Below are positions 3,728 through 56,243 of a DNA stretch of 64,000 nt, piece by piece; within the stretch, counting starts at the first letter, position 1; each line of letters opens with the position of its first letter. The translations under genes and the position numbers were made by a program. Source of the DNA: a virus. The notes below the pieces were generated by a model. It made no database searches and was not told the origin of the DNA. It saw only the letters and a program-made list of their open reading frames with translations. The stretch spans positions 320,001 to 384,000 of the IMG/VR virus record IMGVR_UViG_3300045988_170943. One strand, given 5' to 3'.

Positions 3728-4339
3728 ATGACACTACTTGTTGAATGGCTGACTAGGCTCCGTAAGGAGTACAACACCAACCCCATGCGCCTCCTATGGT
3801 GGATCCTTGGCGTGATCGCAGCAACCACCCTTGGCGGGGTACTCATGGACCTATTTCTACCCTATGGAGGATGGGGCAACATTGCCAGAAGTATCTGGCT
3901 TGCCCCCTCATCAGCCGCTCTGTTCGCCCTCATATATACGGTCGGCCTGTTCCTGCACAACTCGAAGGTGAGAACAGACCCCAACTGGGTGCCTTATCGG
4001 GCGCGGTACTCCCAAAGAACTAGAGTCCAGTACTCCATCATCGCTGGGGCGGTCATGTTCGTCACTGTCTACGCCACAGGCTATCGGGTAGGGTTTACGT
4101 TCATGTCCTCTCTGATCGCCGCCCTCCTCATCTGCTGCGTCGTTTTCTGTCGCTCCACCAGACAAGAACGCTACGATCAGGCAAACGGTGTACAGGACGC
4201 GCGAGACATCGCCACCCAGGTGTACATCTCTGAGAAAATCAGAAAGCATAATGAGCAAAAGCGACGCAAGAAAGCACTGAAAGCCAACCGGTCCAGGCGT
4301 TGGCCATTCCGTGGGACACTGGGCGACGAAGATATCTGA
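3728..4339 (+). CDS. hypothetical membrane protein
   Basis: Start ATG overlaps the upstream stop. Several hydrophobic helices and a basic C-terminal tail. Confidence 0.4.
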   Translation: MTLLVEWLTRLRKEYNTNPMRLLWWILGVIAATTLGGVLMDLFLPYGGWGNIARSIWLAPSSAALFALIYTVGLFLHNSKVRTDPNWVPYRARYSQRTRVQYSIIAGAVMFVTVYATGYRVGFTFMSSLIAALLICCVVFCRSTRQERYDQANGVQDARDIATQVYISEKIRKHNEQKRRKKALKANRSRRWPFRGTLGDEDI

Positions 4340-4504
4340 ACTTTGAGCGTATCCAGAACGTAAACACGTCTCCTGCTGAGCCGCCCCAGAGCCCGGATGA
4401 GTCTCTGGGGCGGCTTCCTTGTACCTGGATGCAGTGAGGGCACCCCGCCGCATAACAACTTCTCAGCACTCCAGCAGAAGTAACCAACCTGCCCCCTACA
4501 GGTA

Positions 4505-4534
4505 GTGACACACCCCACTTGGACGTGTTAGAAT
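4505..4534 (+). promoter_or_regulatory. sigma70-like promoter GTGACA-N18-TAGAAT upstream of nrdE
   Basis: Matches the N18-spacer promoter family found throughout this window, with a weaker -35 than the others. Confidence 0.4.
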
Positions 4535-4635
4535 ACACTCCACTAACCATAGGACCATAGAGTCAAACCCAGTCAGGTAGACAACACCACAGGGGCAAGA
4601 CTCCAGCACGAACACGGACAAAAGGACACACCGCC

Positions 4636-6816
4636 TTGACCGCAGAAGCAAACAACAACCTCGACTACGACGAGACCCCCCGCGAGCCCGCCCTCGACTA
4701 CCACGCCCTCAACGCTAAACTGAACCTCGTCGGAGACGACGGCAAACTTCAGTTAGACGCCGACCATGAGGCGGCCAGGCAGTTCTTCCTCCAGCACGTC
4801 AACCACAACACCGTATACTTTGACGACCTGGAAAAAAAGATAGACTATCTCATCACCAACCACTACTACGAACGCGAGTTCATCGAACAGTACGACTGGG
4901 CATTCGTCAAAGACCTGTACAAGCGAGCCTACTCCTACAAGTTCCGATTCCCCACCTTCATGGGCGCCTTCAAGTACTACTCCTCCTACACGCTCAAAAC
5001 CTTCGATGGCAAACGCTACCTGGAGCGATACGAAGACCGAGTAGTCGCCAACGCCCTCTACCTCGGGCGTGGAGACCAAGAACTAGCCACCAGCATTCTC
5101 GATGAGATCATGACTGGCCGCTACCAGCCCGCCACCCCCACCTTCCTTAACGCCGGGAAAGCACAACGTGGCGAACTAGTGTCGTGCTTCCTAACCAGGG
5201 TGGAAGACAACCTGGAATCCATCAGCCGTGCCATTACAAACGCCCTACAACTGTCCAAACGAGGCGGCGGAGTAGCCCTCCTACTCACCAACATTCGTGA
5301 AACCGGTGCACCCATCAAGCGCATCGAGAACCAGTCCAGCGGAATCGTGCCTGTCATGAAACTACTGGAGGACTCATTCTCCTATGCCAACCAGTTAGGT
5401 GCCCGCCAAGGAGCAGGAGCCGTCTACCTCAGCGCCCACCACCCCGACATCATGAAGTTCCTCGACACCAAGCGAGAGAACGCCGACGAGAAGATCCGCA
5501 TCAAGACCCTCTCTCTGGGTGTCGTTATCCCAGACATCACCTTCGAGTTGGCTAAGAACAACGACGACATGTACCTGTTCAGCCCCTATGATGTCGAACG
5601 AGTCTACGGCACACCCATGTCAGACATCTCGATCACCGAGAAGTACCGCGAGATGGTGGAGAACCCGGATATCAGGAAGACCAAGATCAAGGCCCGACGG
5701 CTCTTCCAGGTCATCGCAGAGATCTCAATGGAGTCAGGATACCCCTATCTTCTGTTCGAGGACACCGCTACCAAGGCGAACCCTCTAAACGGGCGCATCA
5801 ACATGTCCAACCTCTGTAGCGAGATACTTCAGGTAAATGAGGCATCCGAGTACCATCCTAATGGTTCTTACAGTCACGTTGGCAAGGATATCTCCTGCAA
5901 CCTAGGCAGTCTGAACATCGCCAAGACGTTCGACAGCCCAGACTTCGCCAAAACCATCGAAACCGGAATCCGGGCACTCACATCCGTCAGTGACCTATCC
6001 AACATCGATGCTGTACCATCAGTTGAAAACGGAAACCACAGCACCCACAGCATTGGACTCGGAATGATGAACCTACACGGGTTCCTCGCACGCGAACATA
6101 TCCACTATGACTCTCCTGAGGCGGTAGAGTTCGCCGGACTGTTCGCATATGCATTCAACTACTGGTCTATTGTCGCATCAAACAAGATCGCAAAAGAAAC
6201 AGGACAGGTATTTGACGGGTTCGACACCAGCGAATACGCTAACGGCACCTATTTCAATAAATACATTGAGAAGAACTGGAGACACACCACCTCACCCAAA
6301 ATCTCGGCACTGCTAGGAAGAAGTAGCATCTACTTGCCTACACAAGCCGACTGGGAGAAATTAAAGAATGACGTGATGGAGAATGGACTATATAATGGGT
6401 ATCGCCTATGCATCCCCCCAACGGGGAGCATCAGTTACCTGAATTATTCCACCGCATCAATTCACCCAATCATCTCTCCAATTGAAATTAGAAAGGAAGG
6501 AAAGTTGGGTCGAGTTTATGCCCCAGCACCCTATCTTTCTGATGACACTCTGCCTTTCTATCGTGATGCGTACAAGATTGGCCCTGAGGCAATCATCGAC
6601 ATCTATGCGGCCATGACCCCACACATCGACCAGGGTTTGAGCCTCACATTGTTCTGGCCGGACACTGCAACCACGCGAGACATGAACAAGGCGTACATCT
6701 ATGCATGGCGCAAGGGGATCAAGACAATCTACTATGCCCGCATCCGCCAACTGGCTCTTGAAGGCACTCAGGTAGAGGGTACTGCCGCCGGGTACTGCGA
6801 GTCCTGCCAGTTGTGA
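4636..6816 (+). CDS. nrdE: ribonucleoside-diphosphate reductase alpha subunit, class Ib (NrdE-like)
   Basis: Near-colinear similarity to NrdE over the full length (DYHALNA N-terminus, NLCSEI active site, C-terminal GYCESCQL tail). No ATP cone. TTG start. Confidence 0.92.
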
Positions 6817-42100: not shown

Positions 42101-43597
42101 ATGCCAGCAGTCAAGGATCAGTTCGTCTCCCTGCACATGCACTCCGACTACTCCCTACTGGACGGCTACGCCAAGCCAGGAGAGTACATCAACAGGGCTA
42201 TCGAACTTGGGCAGCCAGCCATTGGGCTCACAGATCACGGGAACCTTCATGGCATCAAGCAGTTCATTGACCAAACCAGGGACGCTGGCCTCACCCCAGT
42301 ACCCGGTTCCGAGTTCTACATGGCCCCCATCAGTGATGACGGACCATACCCCAAGCATCCTGTCTACTACGGTGAGGGTGGCCGCAAGAACCCTGAGCAT
42401 GACGTGTCCGCTAACGGGACCTACCTGCACCTAACTGTCTGGGCTTACAATGACGCCGGTTTGAGTAACCTGAAGCGCCTGTCCACGCTCGCCTATGCCC
42501 CAGAACGCTACTACCGGAAACCACGCATCGGGTTTGACGACCTGGCGGACCACTCAGACGGACTCATCGTATCCACGGGCTGCCCCTCATCAGAGATCAG
42601 CACCAGGTTACTCATGGGACAGGAGCAAGCAGCCTATGAGTACGCTGGGCGCATGAAGGAAGTGTTCAAGGACCAACTGTTCATGGAGATCATGAACCAT
42701 AACATGAGCATCGACCTTGAACGCAAACTACTGCCTCAGCAGATGCGTCTAGCGAAACGACTCAACCTCCCCCTACTGGCAACCAACGACTGCCACTACG
42801 CCAACTCCGGGGACGCCCAGGGACACAGTGAGATGCTTTGCATCCAGTCAAAGTCCCTCATGAGTGACAAGACCTATGATCAGGGCGGTAAACGGTTCGC
42901 GTTCAACGGCGACCAGTACTACATGAAGTCCGGGGCACAGATGGCGGCACTGTTCCCTGAAGATGACTATCCCGGCGCCCTGTCGAACACGCTACTGATC
43001 GCAGAGATGGCCTCAGACATTAGGATGGTGTTCGACCCCCACCTGAGGCCCGTCCCGTTTGTCCCTGAGGGCACCACGGTAGAGAAGCATCTCCAGCAGA
43101 TGATCAACGACGGATACAAGGCCAAGTATGTGAACCGTGACTACCCAAGCGTGGAGGAGCGCAAACGTGTCCTGAGTGAAGCAAAACGACGCATTCGTGA
43201 AGAGTGGGAGGTCATCTACTCGTCCGCGTTTGACGGGTACATGTTGGTCGTGGAGGACTATCTGAGATATATCCGGGAGAATTACTCGGTGCGAGGCGAG
43301 AACGGGGAGATCCTTGCATCTCCGTTGGGGCCGGGCCGCGGCAGTGTCGGCGGGTGCATCATCGCATACCTGCTGGGCATCTCTGAGATCGACCCTATTG
43401 AGTATGATCTCCTGTTCGAGCGTTTCCTGTCTCCTGGGCGTGGCGCTGTCTGTCGGGTCACTTATGATGACGGCACTACCGAGGACCTTGTGGTGTCCGA
43501 AACCAGAACTGTGCTGGGTGATGATGGTCAGGAGGTAGGCAGATACATTCACCAGATCAACATTGGGGATAAGGTTGTCATTGAAGAGGAGCACTAA
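42101..43597 (+). CDS. dnaE: DNA polymerase III alpha (DnaE) N-terminal fragment (PHP domain plus start of palm), truncated before the catalytic aspartates
   Basis: PHP motif LHMHSDYSLLDG at the N-terminus. GPGRGSVGGCIIAYLLGISEIDPIEYDLLFERFLSPGRG corresponds to the conserved segment directly preceding the DnaE catalytic DxD. The ORF then continues as Cys-initiated CRVTYDDGTTEDLVVSE...EEEH and stops. A TnpB gene follows on the opposite strand. Confidence 0.65.
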   Translation: MPAVKDQFVSLHMHSDYSLLDGYAKPGEYINRAIELGQPAIGLTDHGNLHGIKQFIDQTRDAGLTPVPGSEFYMAPISDDGPYPKHPVYYGEGGRKNPEHDVSANGTYLHLTVWAYNDAGLSNLKRLSTLAYAPERYYRKPRIGFDDLADHSDGLIVSTGCPSSEISTRLLMGQEQAAYEYAGRMKEVFKDQLFMEIMNHNMSIDLERKLLPQQMRLAKRLNLPLLATNDCHYANSGDAQGHSEMLCIQSKSLMSDKTYDQGGKRFAFNGDQYYMKSGAQMAALFPEDDYPGALSNTLLIAEMASDIRMVFDPHLRPVPFVPEGTTVEKHLQQMINDGYKAKYVNRDYPSVEERKRVLSEAKRRIREEWEVIYSSAFDGYMLVVEDYLRYIRENYSVRGENGEILASPLGPGRGSVGGCIIAYLLGISEIDPIEYDLLFERFLSPGRGAVCRVTYDDGTTEDLVVSETRTVLGDDGQEVGRYIHQINIGDKVVIEEEH

Positions 43598-43707: not shown

Positions 43708-45249
43708 CTATTCCTTAGGATAAACCACATCTACTGTATTTGCAACAGATAGGTCCCTTGTTGGAATTGTCGTGCCGCTGGTTGTCTGAAACCACTCCCT
43801 GTGGTCCACCGCAGAAACCCTAGACTCTGCGGGGCACATCCTTACACTCACCTCCCTCGACTGAAAAGATGGGCGAGTGTGGGTCTTCTTCTGGTTCTGG
43901 GGTGCTTTAGGAGTAGGCCTGTTCTTCGTGCCAGGATGCCTCAGTGGCTTCACACGGCACTTGGATCTTCTGATGCGCTTGGTCTTTGTGGCGTGCCGTC
44001 TCCGTGTCTGGCACGCCTTCTTGACATTCACTCGCTGAGCGATGTTCGCCGCCGCGTTCAAGTCACGATGATGAGTGATGCCACAGGCCGTACAGCGCGG
44101 CTGAGAATAGTCCTGCATGTCCAGGTCAGACTGACACACATGACACCTTCGGGATGTGTGCGCGGCGTTGACCTTCAAGACGCGCCCGCCGTCAGCCTCA
44201 ACCATATCCCGAGTACGCCTGTGGACCTCGCCACGAAACCAGCGGCCGAACTTCATGGTGTTCTTGATGTGAGACAAGTCCTCAAAGGAGACGATGGCAT
44301 TGTCATAACGCCAGGCCGCGTCTGTGATCTCCTGAGCAACGAGGATGCTCAGTTCCTTACGCCGGTTAGACAAGTGACCCCTGTGTGATGCGGCCTCCTC
44401 AGGGCGGTTCTTCCTCTGCAAAGAGGAAACCTGAACCTGAGCCCTCTTAATCTTATTGTTCAAGGACCTGGCACGCTGCCCTAGAAGAGACTGATCAACA
44501 ACCTTTCTGCCCTTGGTATCCCAGACGACGTAAGTGGCCGGGTTAGTCACACCAACATCCACGCCAATAACATAGCGGCTAGAAAACTCGGGACGTCCAG
44601 GATTGGTCTTGCCATGAAAGCCAAACATCACGCGATTCTGATTATCGACCCATATGTCCGGCACGCCAGTCTCACAACCCTTTTCCAGTAATTGGGGTGG
44701 CGTTGGGAAGTGAAGAGTAGTCCATTGGCCTTGAACGACTAGATCCAGGATGATCTTGTCTTCCTGGACATGAATCCTTCTGTACTGGTTGTTTGTTGCA
44801 GAAAGAGAAAGGCGAGGTTGCAGGTCTTTTGGTTTAGAATCCTTGACTGTTCTCTTCCACCCGGCCGAAACATAACCATTATGCGTCCCGTTAGTGGCAT
44901 TGACTCGGGCGGCCCAGGATCTCAGTGTCGAGACCACTCGCTCACGAAACAGCATCTCCAACCGTGAGGCCCCACTCCTGAACCGATTCTTCACCTCACT
45001 GGGAAGAAACAGGCCCATACGCCTACCAGCCTCAGCGGGCTTGAACCTGTCGAAGTAGGTCACCAGGGCAAGATTCTGCTCAGTCAACTCCCGCAGAGCA
45101 TACTCGGCAACCAGTTCAGCATCCGCTCTGATGCCGTCCAGGACCTCATCAAGGTTCAGAGGATCACCAGTCTTACTGAACGCAGCATATGGTGTCCTTG
45201 GGTACGTACGCGACACAGTAGTTCTAGACACCTGGTGAGCCTCCCCCAA
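43708..45249 (-). mobile_element. tnpB: IS605-family OrfB/TnpB-like RNA-guided-nuclease homologue (no tnpA adjacent)
   Basis: RuvC-I IGVDVGVTNPATYVV, RuvC-II FEDLSHIK, zinc finger CHVCQS...CTACG, RuvC-III HHRDLNAAANIAQR. 513 aa. Confidence 0.8.
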
Positions 45250-49618: not shown

Positions 49619-50758
49619 TCACCTCAGGGACTCCCGCAACTTCATGATCTGACTGTTATAGACACCCCGAATACGCCCAGAGGACCTTCGGTCATAGCGC
49701 CCATCTTCCCCAACCTCAAACTGTTTCATGAACCTGTTAATGTAGTCAATAGACTTCGACACCTTCTTAACCTGCTCAGGAGTCATCTCCTTATACAGGG
49801 CAAACCGGCGGAAACTCTCAATCCTTGACAGAACCTCATCCTTCTTATCCTCAGGGACCCTGCTGGTAGACTGCACCCACTCGTTCAAGTCCTTGTTACG
49901 TCGCTCACTGTTGCAGCCAATACACGCCAGGGCCATATTCCCGTAGCGAGTTGTGCCAGGAGGCGGATTCTTCGGGGTCACTGGTGTCAAATGCTCCCCG
50001 GATGCTGCATGCTCATTACCAACACCCGACTGAAACGGCTTGTGGCAGTAGCAGCAGCGGCCACCAAAGAACATAACCGAGGCAACATACCGCTCACGGG
50101 TCATGTCGTTCATCGCAGACGTCAAGATTATCCTTTGAGGCTGATGACGCCTACCATCATTGCGCCACTCAATTGAGGCCGTCATAGACTTGACGTTAGT
50201 AGCAATGATCCTTGAGAACTCCTTCAAATCGACATCATCACCAAGGAACTCCCTCGTCCTCCTGGCGATTGGATCCTTACTTGACAAGAAAGCGTAAATG
50301 TTTCCCTCCGCTCTCTGAAAACGCCTCTGGAGCCTAGGATCATTCAGCCTGTCCTCAAACTTGCTGTAGAAGTCCCGGATAAACGAATAGTCCTCATGAG
50401 AAAACTGCTCCGCCACAGACTCAACCGACTCATGGAACTCCTTCCGAGTCATGCTTCTACCGTAGTACGAGGACACCATGCCAGGAGTCGGTGTCGCCTT
50501 CTTCAAGGCCACCTCAGTGCTCTGCTCGCCTTCTTGCCGAGCCTTGTTCGTCGATGTCGCCAACGCGCCATGAGCCTTCGCCAGAACCTCCTCATTGAAC
50601 GCCCGGATCGTCGCATCACTAGCGTCACTCATAATGTGCTGGCCGTGCTTACAGCGGCCCTTACCTACATTCTCCGGTTTCGCCCTGCACAAAGACAAGG
50701 TACCATCAGCGTTCTGCCCAAAACGACGCTCAACAGCCACCACGAACCACACTCCCAC
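49619..50758 (-). CDS. free-standing HNH-family endonuclease
   Basis: C-terminal-half HNH motif CCYCHKPF...GEHLTPV...GNMALACIGCNSERRNKDLNEW. Confidence 0.65.
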   Translation of the reverse strand: MGVWFVVAVERRFGQNADGTLSLCRAKPENVGKGRCKHGQHIMSDASDATIRAFNEEVLAKAHGALATSTNKARQEGEQSTEVALKKATPTPGMVSSYYGRSMTRKEFHESVESVAEQFSHEDYSFIRDFYSKFEDRLNDPRLQRRFQRAEGNIYAFLSSKDPIARRTREFLGDDVDLKEFSRIIATNVKSMTASIEWRNDGRRHQPQRIILTSAMNDMTRERYVASVMFFGGRCCYCHKPFQSGVGNEHAASGEHLTPVTPKNPPPGTTRYGNMALACIGCNSERRNKDLNEWVQSTSRVPEDKKDEVLSRIESFRRFALYKEMTPEQVKKVSKSIDYINRFMKQFEVGEDGRYDRRSSGRIRGVYNSQIMKLRESLR

Positions 50759-50973: not shown

Positions 50974-52758
50974 CTACCGGTCCTTACGCCACACAAACGA
51001 GCGCACACCACAATCGAACACCTGCACATACCCCTCCATCTGAAGCACGTCAGCATTCGACACCCTAGAACCATCCTCACGAAACCTCGGATAACGCTCA
51101 CCCACCTCAAACCCCAACAGACGATCCGCACCCACACGCCTTGCAGCAGAATCTCGCACATACGCCGGACCCTCACCACCCACCACACGCACCCACATCG
51201 AGTTAGGCCGCCCCGTACGCTCAGCAACCCAACCCGCAAACATTGACTCCGTACGCCCAGTCCCCGTCGCCAAATCCACATACGACACCACCGACACCGG
51301 GTCCACCTCACGGAAAAACACGCTGTCACACCGGCTGAAACCACCCTGCACATGCCACCCCAGCCGCGAACACGACCGAATAGCCTCCCACTCCACATTA
51401 GACCTGAACCGGGCAGGACCATACGACTGCACATGCACCAAATCCCCCCTATAGGTCAGACCCACACAGAACGTCTGACCATTCGCCGCCCCCAACAAGT
51501 GATTCTCCCGGAAAAACCGGTTCGCATCCGCCTGAGACAACGACACAACCTCACACTCACGAGCCCCAACCGAATACGGGCAAACCCCCAACTTCGCCGC
51601 CACCATAGACGCAAAAATACCCTCATCCATCCAGTCAAAATACTGCATCAACGTCACCCCCGCAGACTCCGCCACAAGTGCACGCTCCTGATGGTGACGA
51701 GGCTCAACCGGCAGATGCCTCTTGCGTCCGCACGAACCAGACTCCACAAACTCTGTACACCTGCCCGTCGCATGAGCAAACGACACCGTACTATTATGCG
51801 AGAACGACGGGTTGACATCCACCAACACACCCCCACACCCAAGATCAGCACACCACACGCCGCCACCATCACCAGCAGACCCGAACGCCACCTCAGTATC
51901 AAACCGGTGCCCAGTGACCTCCTCCAAGCGGGCCTTCCACCCCAGATTCACCTTAGACACGCGCCCACCACTAGCAGCAGCACGCTTTTGAACCTCAGGC
52001 AACTGGAAGATGTTCTCAACCCCATACCTCTCCAACATCGTCACCCGGTTACGCTCCGCAAACCCAGGCGCAGTGAACACACACTCAGAACCATACCGCT
52101 CCAACACAGTAGCACGCCCCCTAGCCTGAACCTCTTTGCTCATCATCGGGCTGCGCACCCCAAACCGCTCCATGAACGTCCGCTCACGCTTAGCACGCAC
52201 CTCAGGAGACAACGAAGGATTCGTCACCCCATAGTGAGCCATCAAAGTCTCAGCCTTCTTCGCCTTCACCTCCTCCACCTGAGACACGTTCTTAACACCA
52301 TACCGCTCCATCACCGTCGCATCATGCTTACGCTGACGATCCTCATAGTCAATGAGCCCCCTGGAACACGCCTTCGAGCACGACAAGGAAGGCTGATACA
52401 CATCCACCTCAAACTCCTTCCCGCACACCACACAAGTACGATAATGCGGGCCAGGACAGTACTTCGCCGTACTCCGGTCAGCAGTGAACTCACGACCACA
52501 CCCATCAAACTGGCAAACACACTCCACCACAGGACGATGCGCACGATAATACACGCCAGAACACTTCTTAGAACAGAACCGCAAAATCTTGACCCCAGGC
52601 TTCCGCTGCAACACCTGCCCACCACAAACCTCACACTCAGTATAGTGCGGGCCAGGACAGAACCGGTTAGTCCTCATCTTCGGAGTGAACTCTTTACCAC
52701 AGAACTCACACTGGCGTACAGGCAGATCGACCACGGAACACACCCCAAAATCAACCAA
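50974..52758 (-). CDS. repeat-containing putative DNA-binding or homing-endonuclease-like protein
   Basis: Two N-terminal Zn-ribbon-like units (CEFCGKEFT...CPGPHY...CEVCG, repeated), five tandem 30-aa repeats around the core ERYGVxN...PEV, and a 300-aa C-terminal domain. Real internal repeats support this strand over the overlapping plus-strand frame. Confidence 0.5.
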   Translation of the reverse strand: MVDFGVCSVVDLPVRQCEFCGKEFTPKMRTNRFCPGPHYTECEVCGGQVLQRKPGVKILRFCSKKCSGVYYRAHRPVVECVCQFDGCGREFTADRSTAKYCPGPHYRTCVVCGKEFEVDVYQPSLSCSKACSRGLIDYEDRQRKHDATVMERYGVKNVSQVEEVKAKKAETLMAHYGVTNPSLSPEVRAKRERTFMERFGVRSPMMSKEVQARGRATVLERYGSECVFTAPGFAERNRVTMLERYGVENIFQLPEVQKRAAASGGRVSKVNLGWKARLEEVTGHRFDTEVAFGSAGDGGGVWCADLGCGGVLVDVNPSFSHNSTVSFAHATGRCTEFVESGSCGRKRHLPVEPRHHQERALVAESAGVTLMQYFDWMDEGIFASMVAAKLGVCPYSVGARECEVVSLSQADANRFFRENHLLGAANGQTFCVGLTYRGDLVHVQSYGPARFRSNVEWEAIRSCSRLGWHVQGGFSRCDSVFFREVDPVSVVSYVDLATGTGRTESMFAGWVAERTGRPNSMWVRVVGGEGPAYVRDSAARRVGADRLLGFEVGERYPRFREDGSRVSNADVLQMEGYVQVFDCGVRSFVWRKDR

Positions 52759-52860
52759 CAGAAACTACCCAAGTATATCCGCGCACACCCCGGAAGTCAA
52801 GGGATATTCCACCGCAGACACCTCACCTACCACACCAAGACGGAAGAGGCAACACAACCA

Positions 52861-52980
52861 ATGCGCGTCACCTCCATCAAAAAGATAGACCCCAAGCCAT
52901 CACGCTGCATCGAAGTCACCGGAGAAGACCGACTTTTCGCAGCAGGAGGCCAAAACGGCCACTCCATCGTCTCCCACAAC
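52861..52980 (+). other. IntC-like segment (Hint C-terminal blocks F/G)
   Basis: ...CIEVTGEDRLFAAGGQNGHSIVSHN immediately followed by Ser. Confidence 0.5.
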
Positions 52981-53955
52981 AGCGTTACACAGCGCATCAT
53001 CATTAACAGCGTCATCATGCGCCCCGACAGGTGGCGACTCCTCGGCATCGACCTGAAAAAAGTCGAGTTATCGCGCTACCGCAAATACAGTAACGTCGTC
53101 CTCGGAGTAGCCACCGAGATGGAGGATGCCGTAACAATCCTCAAGTTCGCGCATCAGACCATGATGAAGCGTTACTCAGAGATGGAACAGTTGGGAATCA
53201 ACAACTTCGTCAACCTCCCTGAGCCTGGTTTTTCTCTCATGATCCTAGCCGACGAGATCGGTGAGCTCTTCGGGGCGTCTGGTAATAAATCCGATGAAGG
53301 CAAGGCTAAGGACGCGATGGCTAGCGAGTGTCAGTTCATCGCCGGATCTATTCTTCGTCTAGGCCGTGCTGCGGGTGTTCACATGATTCAGGCTACGCAG
53401 CGCCCTGACGCGAAGTTGATCCCTGGTGAGTCTAAGGCTAACCTGGCAGTTCGCATCAACTGTGGCCGCACAGATTCGACAGCCTCCAGCATGATTCTAG
53501 ACAATAGTGAGGGGACTCGCGTACGCGGCTACCCTCGTGGTCGCTTGTGGTTGCAGATTAATGGCGTGGGGAATCATGCTCAGGGGTTTTGGGCTGATGA
53601 GGACTGGTTGGATGAGTGGTTGGCGTCTAAGGGGCTGAATGCTGATGGTTCGCCTGTGGGTTCTGGGGGGCAGTCTCGTCTTGCTCATTTGGCGAATATG
53701 GGCGATTTTGATGGGACGGATTTGGATACTCAGTCGGGTGTGGATAATGCGTCTGTGATTGAGCGTATTCGTGAGGAGGATGAGTGGGGGTTTGATGATG
53801 AGGAGGGTGAGAGTGATCCTGCTCCAGCGTATGATGATGGCCCTATGGGGCGGCCTGAGTTGGGGTCTGTTGGTAAGGGTAGGGGGGATGCTGTGCGTGG
53901 TGATGGGGAGTGGGATCCGTTGATGCAGTTTGTTGCGGGCGAGAATAATGCCTGA
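52861..53955 (+). CDS. split-intein C-terminal half (IntC-like, 40 aa) fused to an FtsK/SpoIIIE-family ATPase C-terminal fragment
   Basis: First 40 aa MRVTSIKKIDPKPSRCIEVTGEDRLFAAGGQNGHSIVSHN then S: an intein block F/G pattern ending in HN plus a +1 Ser, aligning with split DnaE IntC sequences. The downstream extein has FtsK motifs (LMILADEIGEL, RAAGVHMIQATQRPDAKLIPGESKANLAVRINCGRTDSTASSMILD) beginning just after where the Walker A would be. GAAGAGG sits upstream of the ATG. Confidence 0.55.
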   Translation: MRVTSIKKIDPKPSRCIEVTGEDRLFAAGGQNGHSIVSHNSVTQRIIINSVIMRPDRWRLLGIDLKKVELSRYRKYSNVVLGVATEMEDAVTILKFAHQTMMKRYSEMEQLGINNFVNLPEPGFSLMILADEIGELFGASGNKSDEGKAKDAMASECQFIAGSILRLGRAAGVHMIQATQRPDAKLIPGESKANLAVRINCGRTDSTASSMILDNSEGTRVRGYPRGRLWLQINGVGNHAQGFWADEDWLDEWLASKGLNADGSPVGSGGQSRLAHLANMGDFDGTDLDTQSGVDNASVIERIREEDEWGFDDEEGESDPAPAYDDGPMGRPELGSVGKGRGDAVRGDGEWDPLMQFVAGENNA

Positions 53956-54257: not shown

Positions 54258-56243
54258 GTGCTGGCTTGGAGGTTTGTGGTGTCTGAGATGTTGCAGGGGC
54301 CGTTGTTTGAGCAGGGTCTTGTTGCGATGACTGATGCGGGTCTGCGTATTGAGGATGAGGAGATCAGTGCGGCGTTTGACCGTAAGTCGTTGAGCCCGTC
54401 ACTGGTGTCGTCTGTTGTGGATGAGAATGCGTGTATGGCTCGTATGCTGGCTTCGTCGTTTGTGGTTGATCGACTGGTGACGCCTCCGGTGGATACGGAT
54501 GCGTCTAGGGGGTCGATGTTTCATAAGGTGATGGAGGAGTTTTTCTCTCTTCCTCCTGAGGGGCGCACGAATGAGGGTATGAATCAGGCGTTCCGGGAGG
54601 TGTTGGCGTCGGATAAGTTCAGGGACCTTGGGGGCATCCCGGATGCGCGGGACTGGCTTGTGCGGGCTGTTCAGGGCTATTTCAAGATGGGGTCTAAGCC
54701 TGATAGGGTGCGGGTGGCTGAACTGGATGTGGGGCATGGTGCGCGCCCTGGCCTTGAGGTTTTTGTGAAGGGGCAGATTGGTGCAGCGTCTCGCCCTACT
54801 TTGGGGTTTGTTGACCGCGTGACTGTGGACCCTAGGGATGGTAAGTCTTTGGTGGTGGAAGACTATAAGGGGCTGGCTCTGGATACTCCGATCCCTACTC
54901 CTTATGGCTGGTCAACAATGGGAAGTCTCAGGGTGGGGGATTTTGTGTTGGGGACGACTGGGGCCTGTAGGGTGACGGTGAAGTCGAGTGTGCATTATGG
55001 TCGGCCTTGCTTCCGGGTGGGGACTGCTGATGGTGGGGCCTTGGTGGCGGATAATGTGCACTTGTGGTATGTGGCTCTCGTTCCGCCGGGAGGTTTTGGT
55101 GGTGGCGTGGTTGAGTATGCGGTCATCAGCACTGAGCGTATGGCTGAGTTTGTGCGTGCAGGATACCTGGTGTTTGTTCCTTCCCCTGACCCGTGGGAGC
55201 CTAAGGCTACTGTTGGCGGTGGCACTGTGAACAGTGTTAGTGGCGGCAGTGTTGACGGTGGGCGCTCTGTGGGGTTCTACTATGGCATGTCGCTGGGGCT
55301 CATGGACAGTGGTAACCTTGACCGGTATATTCAGGCTCACGGCAGTGCGGGCGGCGAGTTCTCCATGATTGAGGTGGCGGACCGTGCACTGGCTGGCACC
55401 ATGGATAACATTTTCGTGATCCCAGCCAATATACGGCGGGACATCATTGACGGCATTATTCACGTGTCCACCATAGAGGCGCCAGCGGACACTCCAGCAG
55501 GGTTGCGTGGTTTCAGGTGGCTGCGGTTCAATGAGTCACCTGACGGGCCTAAGGCTATTTCCACGATCCTTCTTGATCTCATGTACTTGTCTGGGATGTC
55601 CCCCATGCGCGTATTCGACCGCTCCCTAGATGACGGTAGGGGTGTGACTGAGATTGTGGTACGGGACGACCTGTACGCGCACCCACTAGGCATGGAACCT
55701 GGCTGGTGCATGGATGATGGCCTGGACGGTGGCTGGCGTGAGATCACCGTGGTTGAGGCTGTTGACTCTGTGCCCACCCAGTGCATCCAGGTGGACTCCC
55801 CCGACAGCCTCTATCTTGCTGGGCGCACCATGATCACCACACACAACACGGGCAAGGTGAAGAGGTGGAAACCAAACACGAAGGGCGACAAGGGTCTGGC
55901 TGAGCAGCGGCAGCAGACCATCTACTCAATGCTTCTGGAACAGCACGGATTCGAGGTGTCAGCAGCCAGACTCATCTACCCCGTCTATGGCGAGATCGTG
56001 AACGTCAACAAGAATGACGAATGGCTACGCAACCGGGTCGTGGAAGACATTGAACGGGCCGACGTCCTCATGAAGGCGTGCCGGGACGAGAACCTGTTCG
56101 AGTACTCACCATCATTCCTTTGCGCATGGTGCCCGCTAGCAAAACTGTGCCCCGTCGCAGACATCAAAGGCGGAAAATGCCAGGTAGCCTTCCAGAAGCA
56201 GCCAGAGCCAGAACAACTACTTGCGGGGATCAAGATTCGATGA
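54258..56243 (+). CDS. Cas4/RecB-family PD-(D/E)xK exonuclease with C-terminal Fe-S cysteine cluster, interrupted by an in-frame intein
   Basis: Extein: GFVDRV...LVVEDYK then TGKVKRW (the hhDYKTGK motif is reconstituted across the insert), a QRQQTIYSML Q-h-x-x-Y motif, and C-terminal CAWCPLAKLCP...C. Insert: Hint N-block (L)ALDTPIPTPYGWSTMGSLRVGDFVLG and C-block ...CIQVDSPDSLYLAGRTMITTHN then T. Confidence 0.65.
   Translation: MLAWRFVVSEMLQGPLFEQGLVAMTDAGLRIEDEEISAAFDRKSLSPSLVSSVVDENACMARMLASSFVVDRLVTPPVDTDASRGSMFHKVMEEFFSLPPEGRTNEGMNQAFREVLASDKFRDLGGIPDARDWLVRAVQGYFKMGSKPDRVRVAELDVGHGARPGLEVFVKGQIGAASRPTLGFVDRVTVDPRDGKSLVVEDYKGLALDTPIPTPYGWSTMGSLRVGDFVLGTTGACRVTVKSSVHYGRPCFRVGTADGGALVADNVHLWYVALVPPGGFGGGVVEYAVISTERMAEFVRAGYLVFVPSPDPWEPKATVGGGTVNSVSGGSVDGGRSVGFYYGMSLGLMDSGNLDRYIQAHGSAGGEFSMIEVADRALAGTMDNIFVIPANIRRDIIDGIIHVSTIEAPADTPAGLRGFRWLRFNESPDGPKAISTILLDLMYLSGMSPMRVFDRSLDDGRGVTEIVVRDDLYAHPLGMEPGWCMDDGLDGGWREITVVEAVDSVPTQCIQVDSPDSLYLAGRTMITTHNTGKVKRWKPNTKGDKGLAEQRQQTIYSMLLEQHGFEVSAARLIYPVYGEIVNVNKNDEWLRNRVVEDIERADVLMKACRDENLFEYSPSFLCAWCPLAKLCPVADIKGGKCQVAFQKQPEPEQLLAGIKIR
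54873..55847 (+). other. intein (about 325 aa) inserted at the catalytic (D/E)xK motif of the Cas4-like nuclease
   Basis: N-terminal block A (ALDTPI...VGD.VLG, Ala/Leu rather than Cys at position 1, so the exact boundary is uncertain by 1-2 codons). C-terminal block G ends in THN, with a +1 Thr. The central 200 aa have no clear LAGLIDADG or HNH motif. Confidence 0.55.

Follow-up and report, generated by a model that had tools for sequence, protein, structure and literature searches.

Among natural split inteins, AceL-TerL and VidaL are atypical in possessing very short N-fragments of 25 and 16 amino acids (aa), respectively. Class 3 inteins are defined by the lack of a Cys at position 1, the presence of a Cys at position C2:4 and a WCT triplet (Hoffmann et al., 2020, PMC7891396). 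Only one natural split intein of this class has been reported, AceL NrdHF, which came from a metagenome and consists of two pieces of 98 and 48 aa encoded at a fractured locus; no split form was present among 1701 class 3 inteins in nr (PMC7891396). In the fractured genes described from phage-like sequences, the halves of a gene flank an endonuclease gene, the intein is in two pieces, and the endonucleases form a predicted Vsr-like family (Dassa et al., 2009, PMC2677866). Natural inteins in more than two fragments were undemonstrated as of a 2023 preprint (10.1101/2023.01.30.526203), and our search of the literature after that preprint found no later report of them. Here we describe a gene at 52861..53955 (+) in a 64,000-nucleotide (nt) stretch of viral DNA, hereafter the window (positions 320,001 to 384,000 of the IMG/VR record IMGVR_UViG_3300045988_170943), the product of which starts with an intein C-fragment and continues as an FtsK-like ATPase.

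We consider it probable that this gene encodes the C-terminal piece (C-piece, or C-half with regard to the host protein) of a membrane-anchored FtsK/TcpA-like translocase, whose P-loop is broken (GxTGGGK↓S, the arrow marking the intein junction) by a class 3 intein encoded in three genes. With somewhat less confidence, but still on balance, we favour the view that the family belongs to a natural split intein in three pieces, the first of its kind. It would be the second known natural split intein of class 3 type and by far the most widespread one, and in it an N-tag of 12 aa, a C-tag of 40 aa and a free-standing, trans-acting "splicing subunit" of ~210 aa would ligate the translocase halves in huge phages. 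An earlier note on this DNA had interpreted the gene as one half of a fractured FtsK-like gene, awaiting a trans-splicing partner. That interpretation is only partly supported, because neither the Cys-initiated partner of ~100 aa nor the fractured locus that it called for was borne out.

The C-piece gene and its intein leader

The open reading frame (ORF) at 52861..53955 (+) encodes 364 aa and opens with an ATG at 52861, 11 nt upstream of which a Shine-Dalgarno-like GGAAGAGG (52842..52849, +) can be read directly from the sequence. Residues 1-40 of the product, MRVTSIKKIDPKPSRCIEVTGEDRLFAAGGQNGHSIVSHN, are encoded at 52861..52980 (+) and include Cys16 (52906..52908), Ser38, His39 and Asn40; Ser41 comes next. 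This leader reads ...SRCIEV...SIVSHN↓S, that is, intein blocks F and G ending in His-Asn, with a +1 Ser. The remainder (52981..53955, +, stop codon included) is the C-extein, an FtsK/TcpA-like ATPase that runs from the Walker A Ser (Ser41) to an acidic C-terminus. Pfam FtsK_SpoIIIE (PF01580) matches from residue 41 onward with E 2e-12, starting at profile position 53 of 221, directly past Walker A, and the family profile matches in the PDB the TcpA-like "DNA translocase coupling protein" 6O1Z (E 4e-23) and FtsK 2IUS (E 9e-22). These matches confirm the FtsK signatures noticed earlier downstream of the leader and place the C-part in the FtsK/SpoIIIE group; the sole Walker A residue in 52861..53955 is the final Ser of that motif, and in relatives the Walker A is carried by the N-half. 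The +1 Ser41 is the Ser of the Walker A GKS, because unsplit relatives (P0095, P0134 and P0140) read GxTGGGK↓SVxQRNII, and the extein does begin at Walker A, as had been proposed.

All homologues start at the Met equivalent to the leader Met of the window protein. Further upstream and in frame with the gene, the antisense shadow of a minus-strand DUF7487 gene forms part of an 867-aa stop-free ORF (51352..53955, +), and database gene callers therefore give a 408-aa product (P0001).

A database search yielded 420 homologues, and nearly all of the best 120 that were listed carry the same leader at their start, with the consensus M-x-I-K-S-I-x-x-I-x-P-x-x-S-R-C-I-E-V-D-S-x-D-R-L-F-A-x-G-G-...-T/S-H-N↓S-V-x-Q-R-N-I-I. 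More than 100 homologue clusters, which come from phage contigs of 200-700 kilobases (kb), retain the leader. Across 45 aligned sequences no exception to Cys16, Asn40 or Ser41 occurs, and His39 is nearly invariant. Cys16 occupies block F position 4 (C2:4), where class 1 inteins carry Asp, and block G position 5 (G5) is Ser38 in this phage and Thr or Ser among the homologues.

Intact inteins exist at the same site. P0136, P0141, P0168 and others (~1300-1650 aa) hold an intact intein with a LAGLIDADG domain exactly at GK↓S, and P0134 and P0140 are intein-less and unsplit there. The first residue of the intact inteins of the family is Ala, Ser, Met, Gly, Leu or Gln, never Cys, and their block B contains H-x-W; the LAGLIDADG-bearing inteins at GK↓S show H-L-W there, together with the block F Cys and a terminal T-H-N. 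Residues 3-328 of the window protein, leader plus extein, align in a single stretch with residues 873-1197 of P0136, and the leader aligns with the final ~38 residues of the intact inteins. Among solved structures, the best matches of the 45-aa window leader were the class 3 inteins 6RIX, 6RIY and 6BS8, weak as they were (E 0.27); a relative's leader matched the same class 3 DnaB inteins more strongly (E 6e-4), and Cys16 stands in register with the catalytic Cys of the class 3 structures (6RIX: VRCVEV). The equation of the leader with an intein C-fragment, together with the alignment to intein C-termini by which the earlier note had suggested checking it, has thus held up: by these alignments the leader is a genuine HINT C-terminus, and in its residues the intein at the GK↓S site fits the class 3 definition, with an internal Cys as the predicted nucleophile. 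In the lineages that have a Ser at position 1, nucleophilic attack by that residue is conceivable in principle.

Many C-half homologues (P0018, P0068-P0090, P0129-P0133) hold one or two extra intact class 3 inteins, inserted at SG(V/I)K↓...↓T/S-DEGK and GETK↓...↓SN(V/L); a Lys precedes each.

Partner pieces in related huge phages

The N-extein of the unsplit relative P0134 served as the query for the N-half. The family so obtained (P0269-P0277) comprises proteins of 335-365 aa with hydrophobic N-terminal helices, two or more of them transmembrane. Their N-extein of ~330 aa is conserved (AVPPLP...WSFFPIGLGVENG...) and ends in SPMxLIAGGTGGGK, and in P0269-P0277 plus more than 25 loci the N-halves terminate 12-20 aa past GK, with tails such as ALSADTLVRVLDEEK, SLSIDTLVEVIRHENVEY and AEDINTKVLRYVED, each followed by a stop codon. 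The conserved pattern of the tail, A/S-L-x-x-D/N-T-x-V, is intein block A, with Ala at position 1 after GK and Ser in some N-halves (relatives only). A Cys-initiated IntN of ~100 aa had been predicted for the partner; what the relatives have after GK is this tail of 12-20 intein residues, and its start is not Cys because the intein is class 3, with an internal Cys nucleophile. Wherever an N-half was identified, in more than 10 lineages with GC contents of 30-56%, its short tail was combined with a separate block B gene. N-half and C-half occur together on four IMG/VR contigs, 90-115 kb apart, in agreement with the expectation that a partner would be needed elsewhere in the genome. Some N-halves (P0274, L059) hold an additional class 1 mini-intein ahead of the P-loop.

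As 12-20 plus 40 residues are too few for a HINT domain, the missing middle was expected elsewhere, and a third, free-standing middle piece (M-piece), unforeseen by the earlier note, does exist in relatives. The first M ORF lies 4.6 kb downstream of an N-half and is matched by the hidden Markov model (HMM) of the intein N-region from position 14; in two further lineages, homologues follow the N-half at downstream distances of 0.9 and 9.3 kb, and the overall range is 0.3-9 kb. A metagenome scan with the M-piece gave 43 loci on contigs of up to 727 kb, 28 of which have an N-half upstream of M on the same strand, and at locus L253 the C-half adjoins M in divergent orientation. The M-pieces are ~205-235 aa long and show (K/R)xFGDLxxGD after a few residues, then EHxPxxMxE; the block B motif SGNHLWY is invariant in a nine-lineage alignment and is followed by a helical segment of ~110 aa and a second conserved motif (VTTxE-like, by-eye reading), and the piece ends before block F. 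Two other candidates were checked and rejected: the 205-aa gene following the N-half in L057 is not an M-piece, and the DUF7487 endonucleases do not carry the missing HINT middle.

Aligned with hhalign against the N-terminal 330 residues of seven same-site intact inteins, the nine M-pieces scored a probability of 99.4% (E 3.9e-21). Because M columns 4-185 fall on intein columns 15-192, helical insert included, the three products are, as aligned, collinear with one intact intein and do not overlap: N covers positions 1 to ~12, M extends from ~15 as far as the point where the endonuclease is inserted, and the last 40 residues are those of C. When N, M and C were concatenated and compared with 6RIX, the M part gave a weak match from about residue 16, and the C part fell on residues 109-138.

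The 681,631-base-pair (bp) contig Ga0308157_10000026 carries all three genes on a single strand (N at ~391 kb, M at ~400 kb and C at ~507 kb), and in a cluster look-up N clusters and M clusters were located on contigs of the same lengths. Complementary fragments, by which a split intein is recognised, are present in related genomes, with N, M and C on single contigs. Of the lineages in which all three pieces were located, the nearest shares 64-65% identity with the window protein in its C-half; its pieces lie on IMGVR_UViG_3300045988_154284 and ERZ772945.2 NODE-2, which are both 398,101 bp and were taken as the same contig. At the level of sequence comparison, it could be shown for several related huge-phage lineages that the N, M and C genes exist, are collinear and co-occur on single contigs.

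Closer to the C-piece gene, the partner searches were negative. No ORF with a Walker A plus an IntN was detected in the window by regular expressions or tblastn, no P-loop there is followed by intein block A or B, and HMMs of the N-half and M-piece found neither in it, which agrees with the earlier statement that no N-extein or IntN lies upstream; the one intein that these searches picked up in the window is the intact one in the neighbouring nuclease gene. In 55 related loci the 10 kb around the C-half contained no N-half; L004, L006, L008 and 45 IMG/VR loci likewise gave no adjacent one, and the small upstream ORFs in L004 and L006, checked as possible HINT pieces, are not HINT. A chimeric profile of P-loop plus IntN recovered only unrelated class 3 inteins in terminase P-loops and an FtsK fragment.

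Proposed assembly and alternative explanations

In the assembly that we propose, the N-piece would contribute the membrane domain and the N-extein ending in GGTGGGK and would supply block A with its 12-20 residues, the M-piece would provide the remainder of the N-terminal HINT subdomain (FGDLxxGD, SGNHLWY, the helical insert and the second motif), and the 40-aa leader of the C-piece would supply blocks F and G. The three polypeptides would form a single class 3 HINT fold, in which Cys16 of the C-piece would attack the Lys-Ala/Ser bond of the N-half, giving rise to a branched thioester. Transfer of the acyl group to Ser41, cyclisation of Asn40 and an O-N shift would follow, leading to an intact P-loop (GGTGGGK-S) in a full-length, membrane-anchored translocase. 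The ligated exteins would probably resemble the contiguous P0134 and P0140 (GGGK-SV.QRNII). Inteins engineered to be split near residue 11, as well as engineered three-piece inteins, splice according to work cited in the 2023 preprint (10.1101/2023.01.30.526203), and the N/M/C architecture is therefore chemically plausible.

Several observations weigh against a three-gene intein. N-half and M-piece HMMs gave no match in the window or within +/-10 kb in the 98-99% identical relatives. Scans for the N-half motif, SSB synteny and the M motif, which recovered other lineages on contigs of 280-730 kb, did not match the three IMG/VR contigs of this phage. Its N and M genes, which are presumably located outside the window, either have diverged at the motifs used or lie in sequence beyond the data searched. 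With regard to the M-piece, Met replaces the Trp of block B in one lineage outside the nine-lineage alignment, Pfam returns Hint matches at sub-threshold values only (E 0.004-0.014), and the helical insert of ~110 aa is without an assigned role. Broken N or M genes occur on two contigs (L232, L267) and could be assembly errors or decay. Finally, splicing by the N, M and C pieces is itself deduced from sequence, which speaks equally for the first of the alternatives below.

According to that alternative, the fragments are inactive relics that do not splice, and either the N- and C-halves, with or without M, associate non-covalently by means of HINT as a docking module, or the C-half works alone. 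A P-loop severed at the Lys-Ser bond might indeed reform non-covalently, and the DnaE pieces of the same genomes have HINT-like tails without catalytic residues, by which token non-splicing remnants seem to occur. However, the residues that are invariant or nearly invariant are those of class 3 catalysis (the Cys at F4, T/S-H-N, the +1 Ser and S-x-x-H-x-W of block B), and they persist although leaders and M-pieces otherwise share only 35-60% identity between lineages. Neither Asn40 nor Cys16 would be demanded by docking alone; such conservation therefore favours activity over mere docking, and we regard loss of splicing as an unlikely explanation.

An ordinary two-piece split intein, in which a single partner gene with the Walker A half and a full IntN of ~100 aa would splice in trans, appears less probable again. 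Natural split inteins usually consist of two pieces, the C-piece has with its 40 aa the canonical length and break point, and the partner of this phage is not among the scan matches, so that its form leaves room for such an arrangement. On the other hand, the N-halves of relatives stop 12-20 aa after GK throughout the lineages described above, with block B in a separate gene, and a Cys-initiated IntN is incompatible with a class 3 C-piece. An artefactual origin, whether through a wrongly called start, as a pseudogene or from an ordinary FtsK gene that was mis-assembled, is very hard to credit, for although gene callers extend the ORF upstream through the stop-free antisense shadow, independent assemblies by the hundred show the identical Met-initiated leader, the in-frame stretch ahead of it overlaps the opposite-strand endonuclease gene without any FtsK or HINT signal, and N, M and C are each intact ORFs on many contigs.

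If the C-piece gene does belong to a three-gene class 3 intein, production of the active enzyme would hinge on three separately encoded, possibly separately timed products, which suggests that huge phages may gate the assembly of a membrane FtsK/TcpA-like DNA pump via three gene products. The three named genes make the question of natural inteins in more than two fragments directly testable. Split inteins of class 3, hitherto considered almost absent from nature, would now form a family of more than 100 sequence clusters. A natural N/M/C arrangement in which the N-tag is very short, the C-tag short and the middle protein free is also the format sought for three-input protein logic and peptide-tag ligation. 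In addition, intact, two-piece and three-piece states are all present at one site and document a step-wise breaking of genes by endonuclease genes.

Neighbouring genes and comparison with known split inteins

Two minus-strand genes next to the C-piece gene had been described as endonuclease-like, and both descriptions stand. The nearer one (50974..52758, -), divergent from the C-piece gene, is a homing-endonuclease-like gene with Zn ribbons, ERYGV/DUF7487 repeats, and nuclease and C-terminal domains (Pfam DUF7487, E 3e-22; PHROG 3339 "homing endonuclease", E 1.5e-47); a paralogue adjoins the C-half in L004 and L008, not in L006. The farther one (49619..50758, -) is HNH endonuclease-like, with matches to several HNH PHROGs (best E 3e-10) and a Pfam HNH match of E 0.007, under threshold. 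The fractured-gene arrangement inferred from these neighbours did not hold: past both endonuclease-like genes lies a complete NrdD gene, rather than an FtsK N-half, which in relatives is found 90-115 kb from the C-half. The INPHARED collection of deposited phage genomes contained no close relative of the window; the 98-99% identical relatives are on contigs of 200-424 kb, viral per IMG/VR.

The next gene on the other side (54258..56243, +) encodes a RecB/Cas4-like PD-(D/E)XK nuclease and contains an intact class 3-type intein of 326 aa at 54870..55847 (GLALDTPIPTP...HLW...QCIQVDS...ITTHN↓T), inserted at a DYK↓TGK motif. Homologues of the nuclease in L004, L006 and L008 measure 308-427 aa, apparently too short for that intein. 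Two TnpB/transposase-like genes (43708..45249, -, and 57090..58619, -; PHROG 506) are also present, the second of which corresponds to Cas12f1-like_TNB in relatives. The first lies between the N-part of DnaE and dnaX; it is absent there in the 99%-identical L001-L003 and is therefore a strain-variable insertion.

DNA polymerase III alpha (DnaE) is split in pieces as well. Its 498-aa N-part (42101..43597, +) stops just past FERFLSPGR, in a tail of ~50 aa that resembles a HINT start (CRVTYDDG...GRYIHQINIGDKVV). The DnaE C-part of this phage was not found in the window; in L006 (1099..2580; 3738..6455) a 905-aa C-part follows dnaX and starts 25 aa before PDIDTDF, without a His-Asn junction. A second intein, either split or degenerate, may be present in DnaE.

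In a distant huge phage (L030, 1..11100; L055, 4500..10300; IMGVR_UViG_3300044557_000292), the FtsK-like gene is distributed over at least four ORFs, with further split inteins at other break points. One of these inteins is split before block B at GP↓TGGGKS, which leaves a four-residue mini-extein, CGGP, between two inteins. Between the FtsK-like pieces, the opposite strand carries a 949-aa gene for a Vsr-like endonuclease.

Compared with known split inteins, the FtsK-like family resembles AceL-TerL and VidaL in its break after block A and in an N-fragment of 12-25 aa. In those inteins one long C-fragment carries the C-extein, whereas in the FtsK-like family a second break, at the canonical site, divides this fragment into a free M-piece and the 40-aa C-piece. 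With AceL NrdHF the family shares a phage-like metagenomic origin, Ala1, an internal C2:4 Cys, a C-fragment of ~40-48 aa and an adjoining homing endonuclease gene, and one M lineage shares with it the Met-for-Trp exchange in block B. The triplet of AceL NrdHF is the atypical MCT, and both C-terminal His residues are missing from it, whereas most lineages of the FtsK-like family have the canonical W/C/T(S) and the His-Asn is kept; the family further differs in its N-piece of 12-20 aa, its separate M-piece, its FtsK-like ATPase host and genes up to ~115 kb apart.

As in the fractured genes (PMC2677866), a phage gene of the replication or repair type is broken by a split intein and free-standing endonuclease genes are adjacent; unlike in those, NrdD instead of the N-half lies across the endonucleases, and the intein pieces are three. 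The engineered three-piece inteins (Ssp/Rma DnaB, Npu DnaE and gp41-1) are alike in their N/M/C order, ~11-aa N-piece and free M, and they are artificial and class 1, unlike the FtsK-like family (10.1101/2023.01.30.526203). The intact P-loop inteins (P0136, P0141, P0168) and the class 3 DnaB inteins 6RIX and 6BS8 have the same GK↓S site, blocks and helical insert after block B as the FtsK-like family, but they are single polypeptides, mostly with a LAGLIDADG domain, in contrast to a family distributed over three genes.
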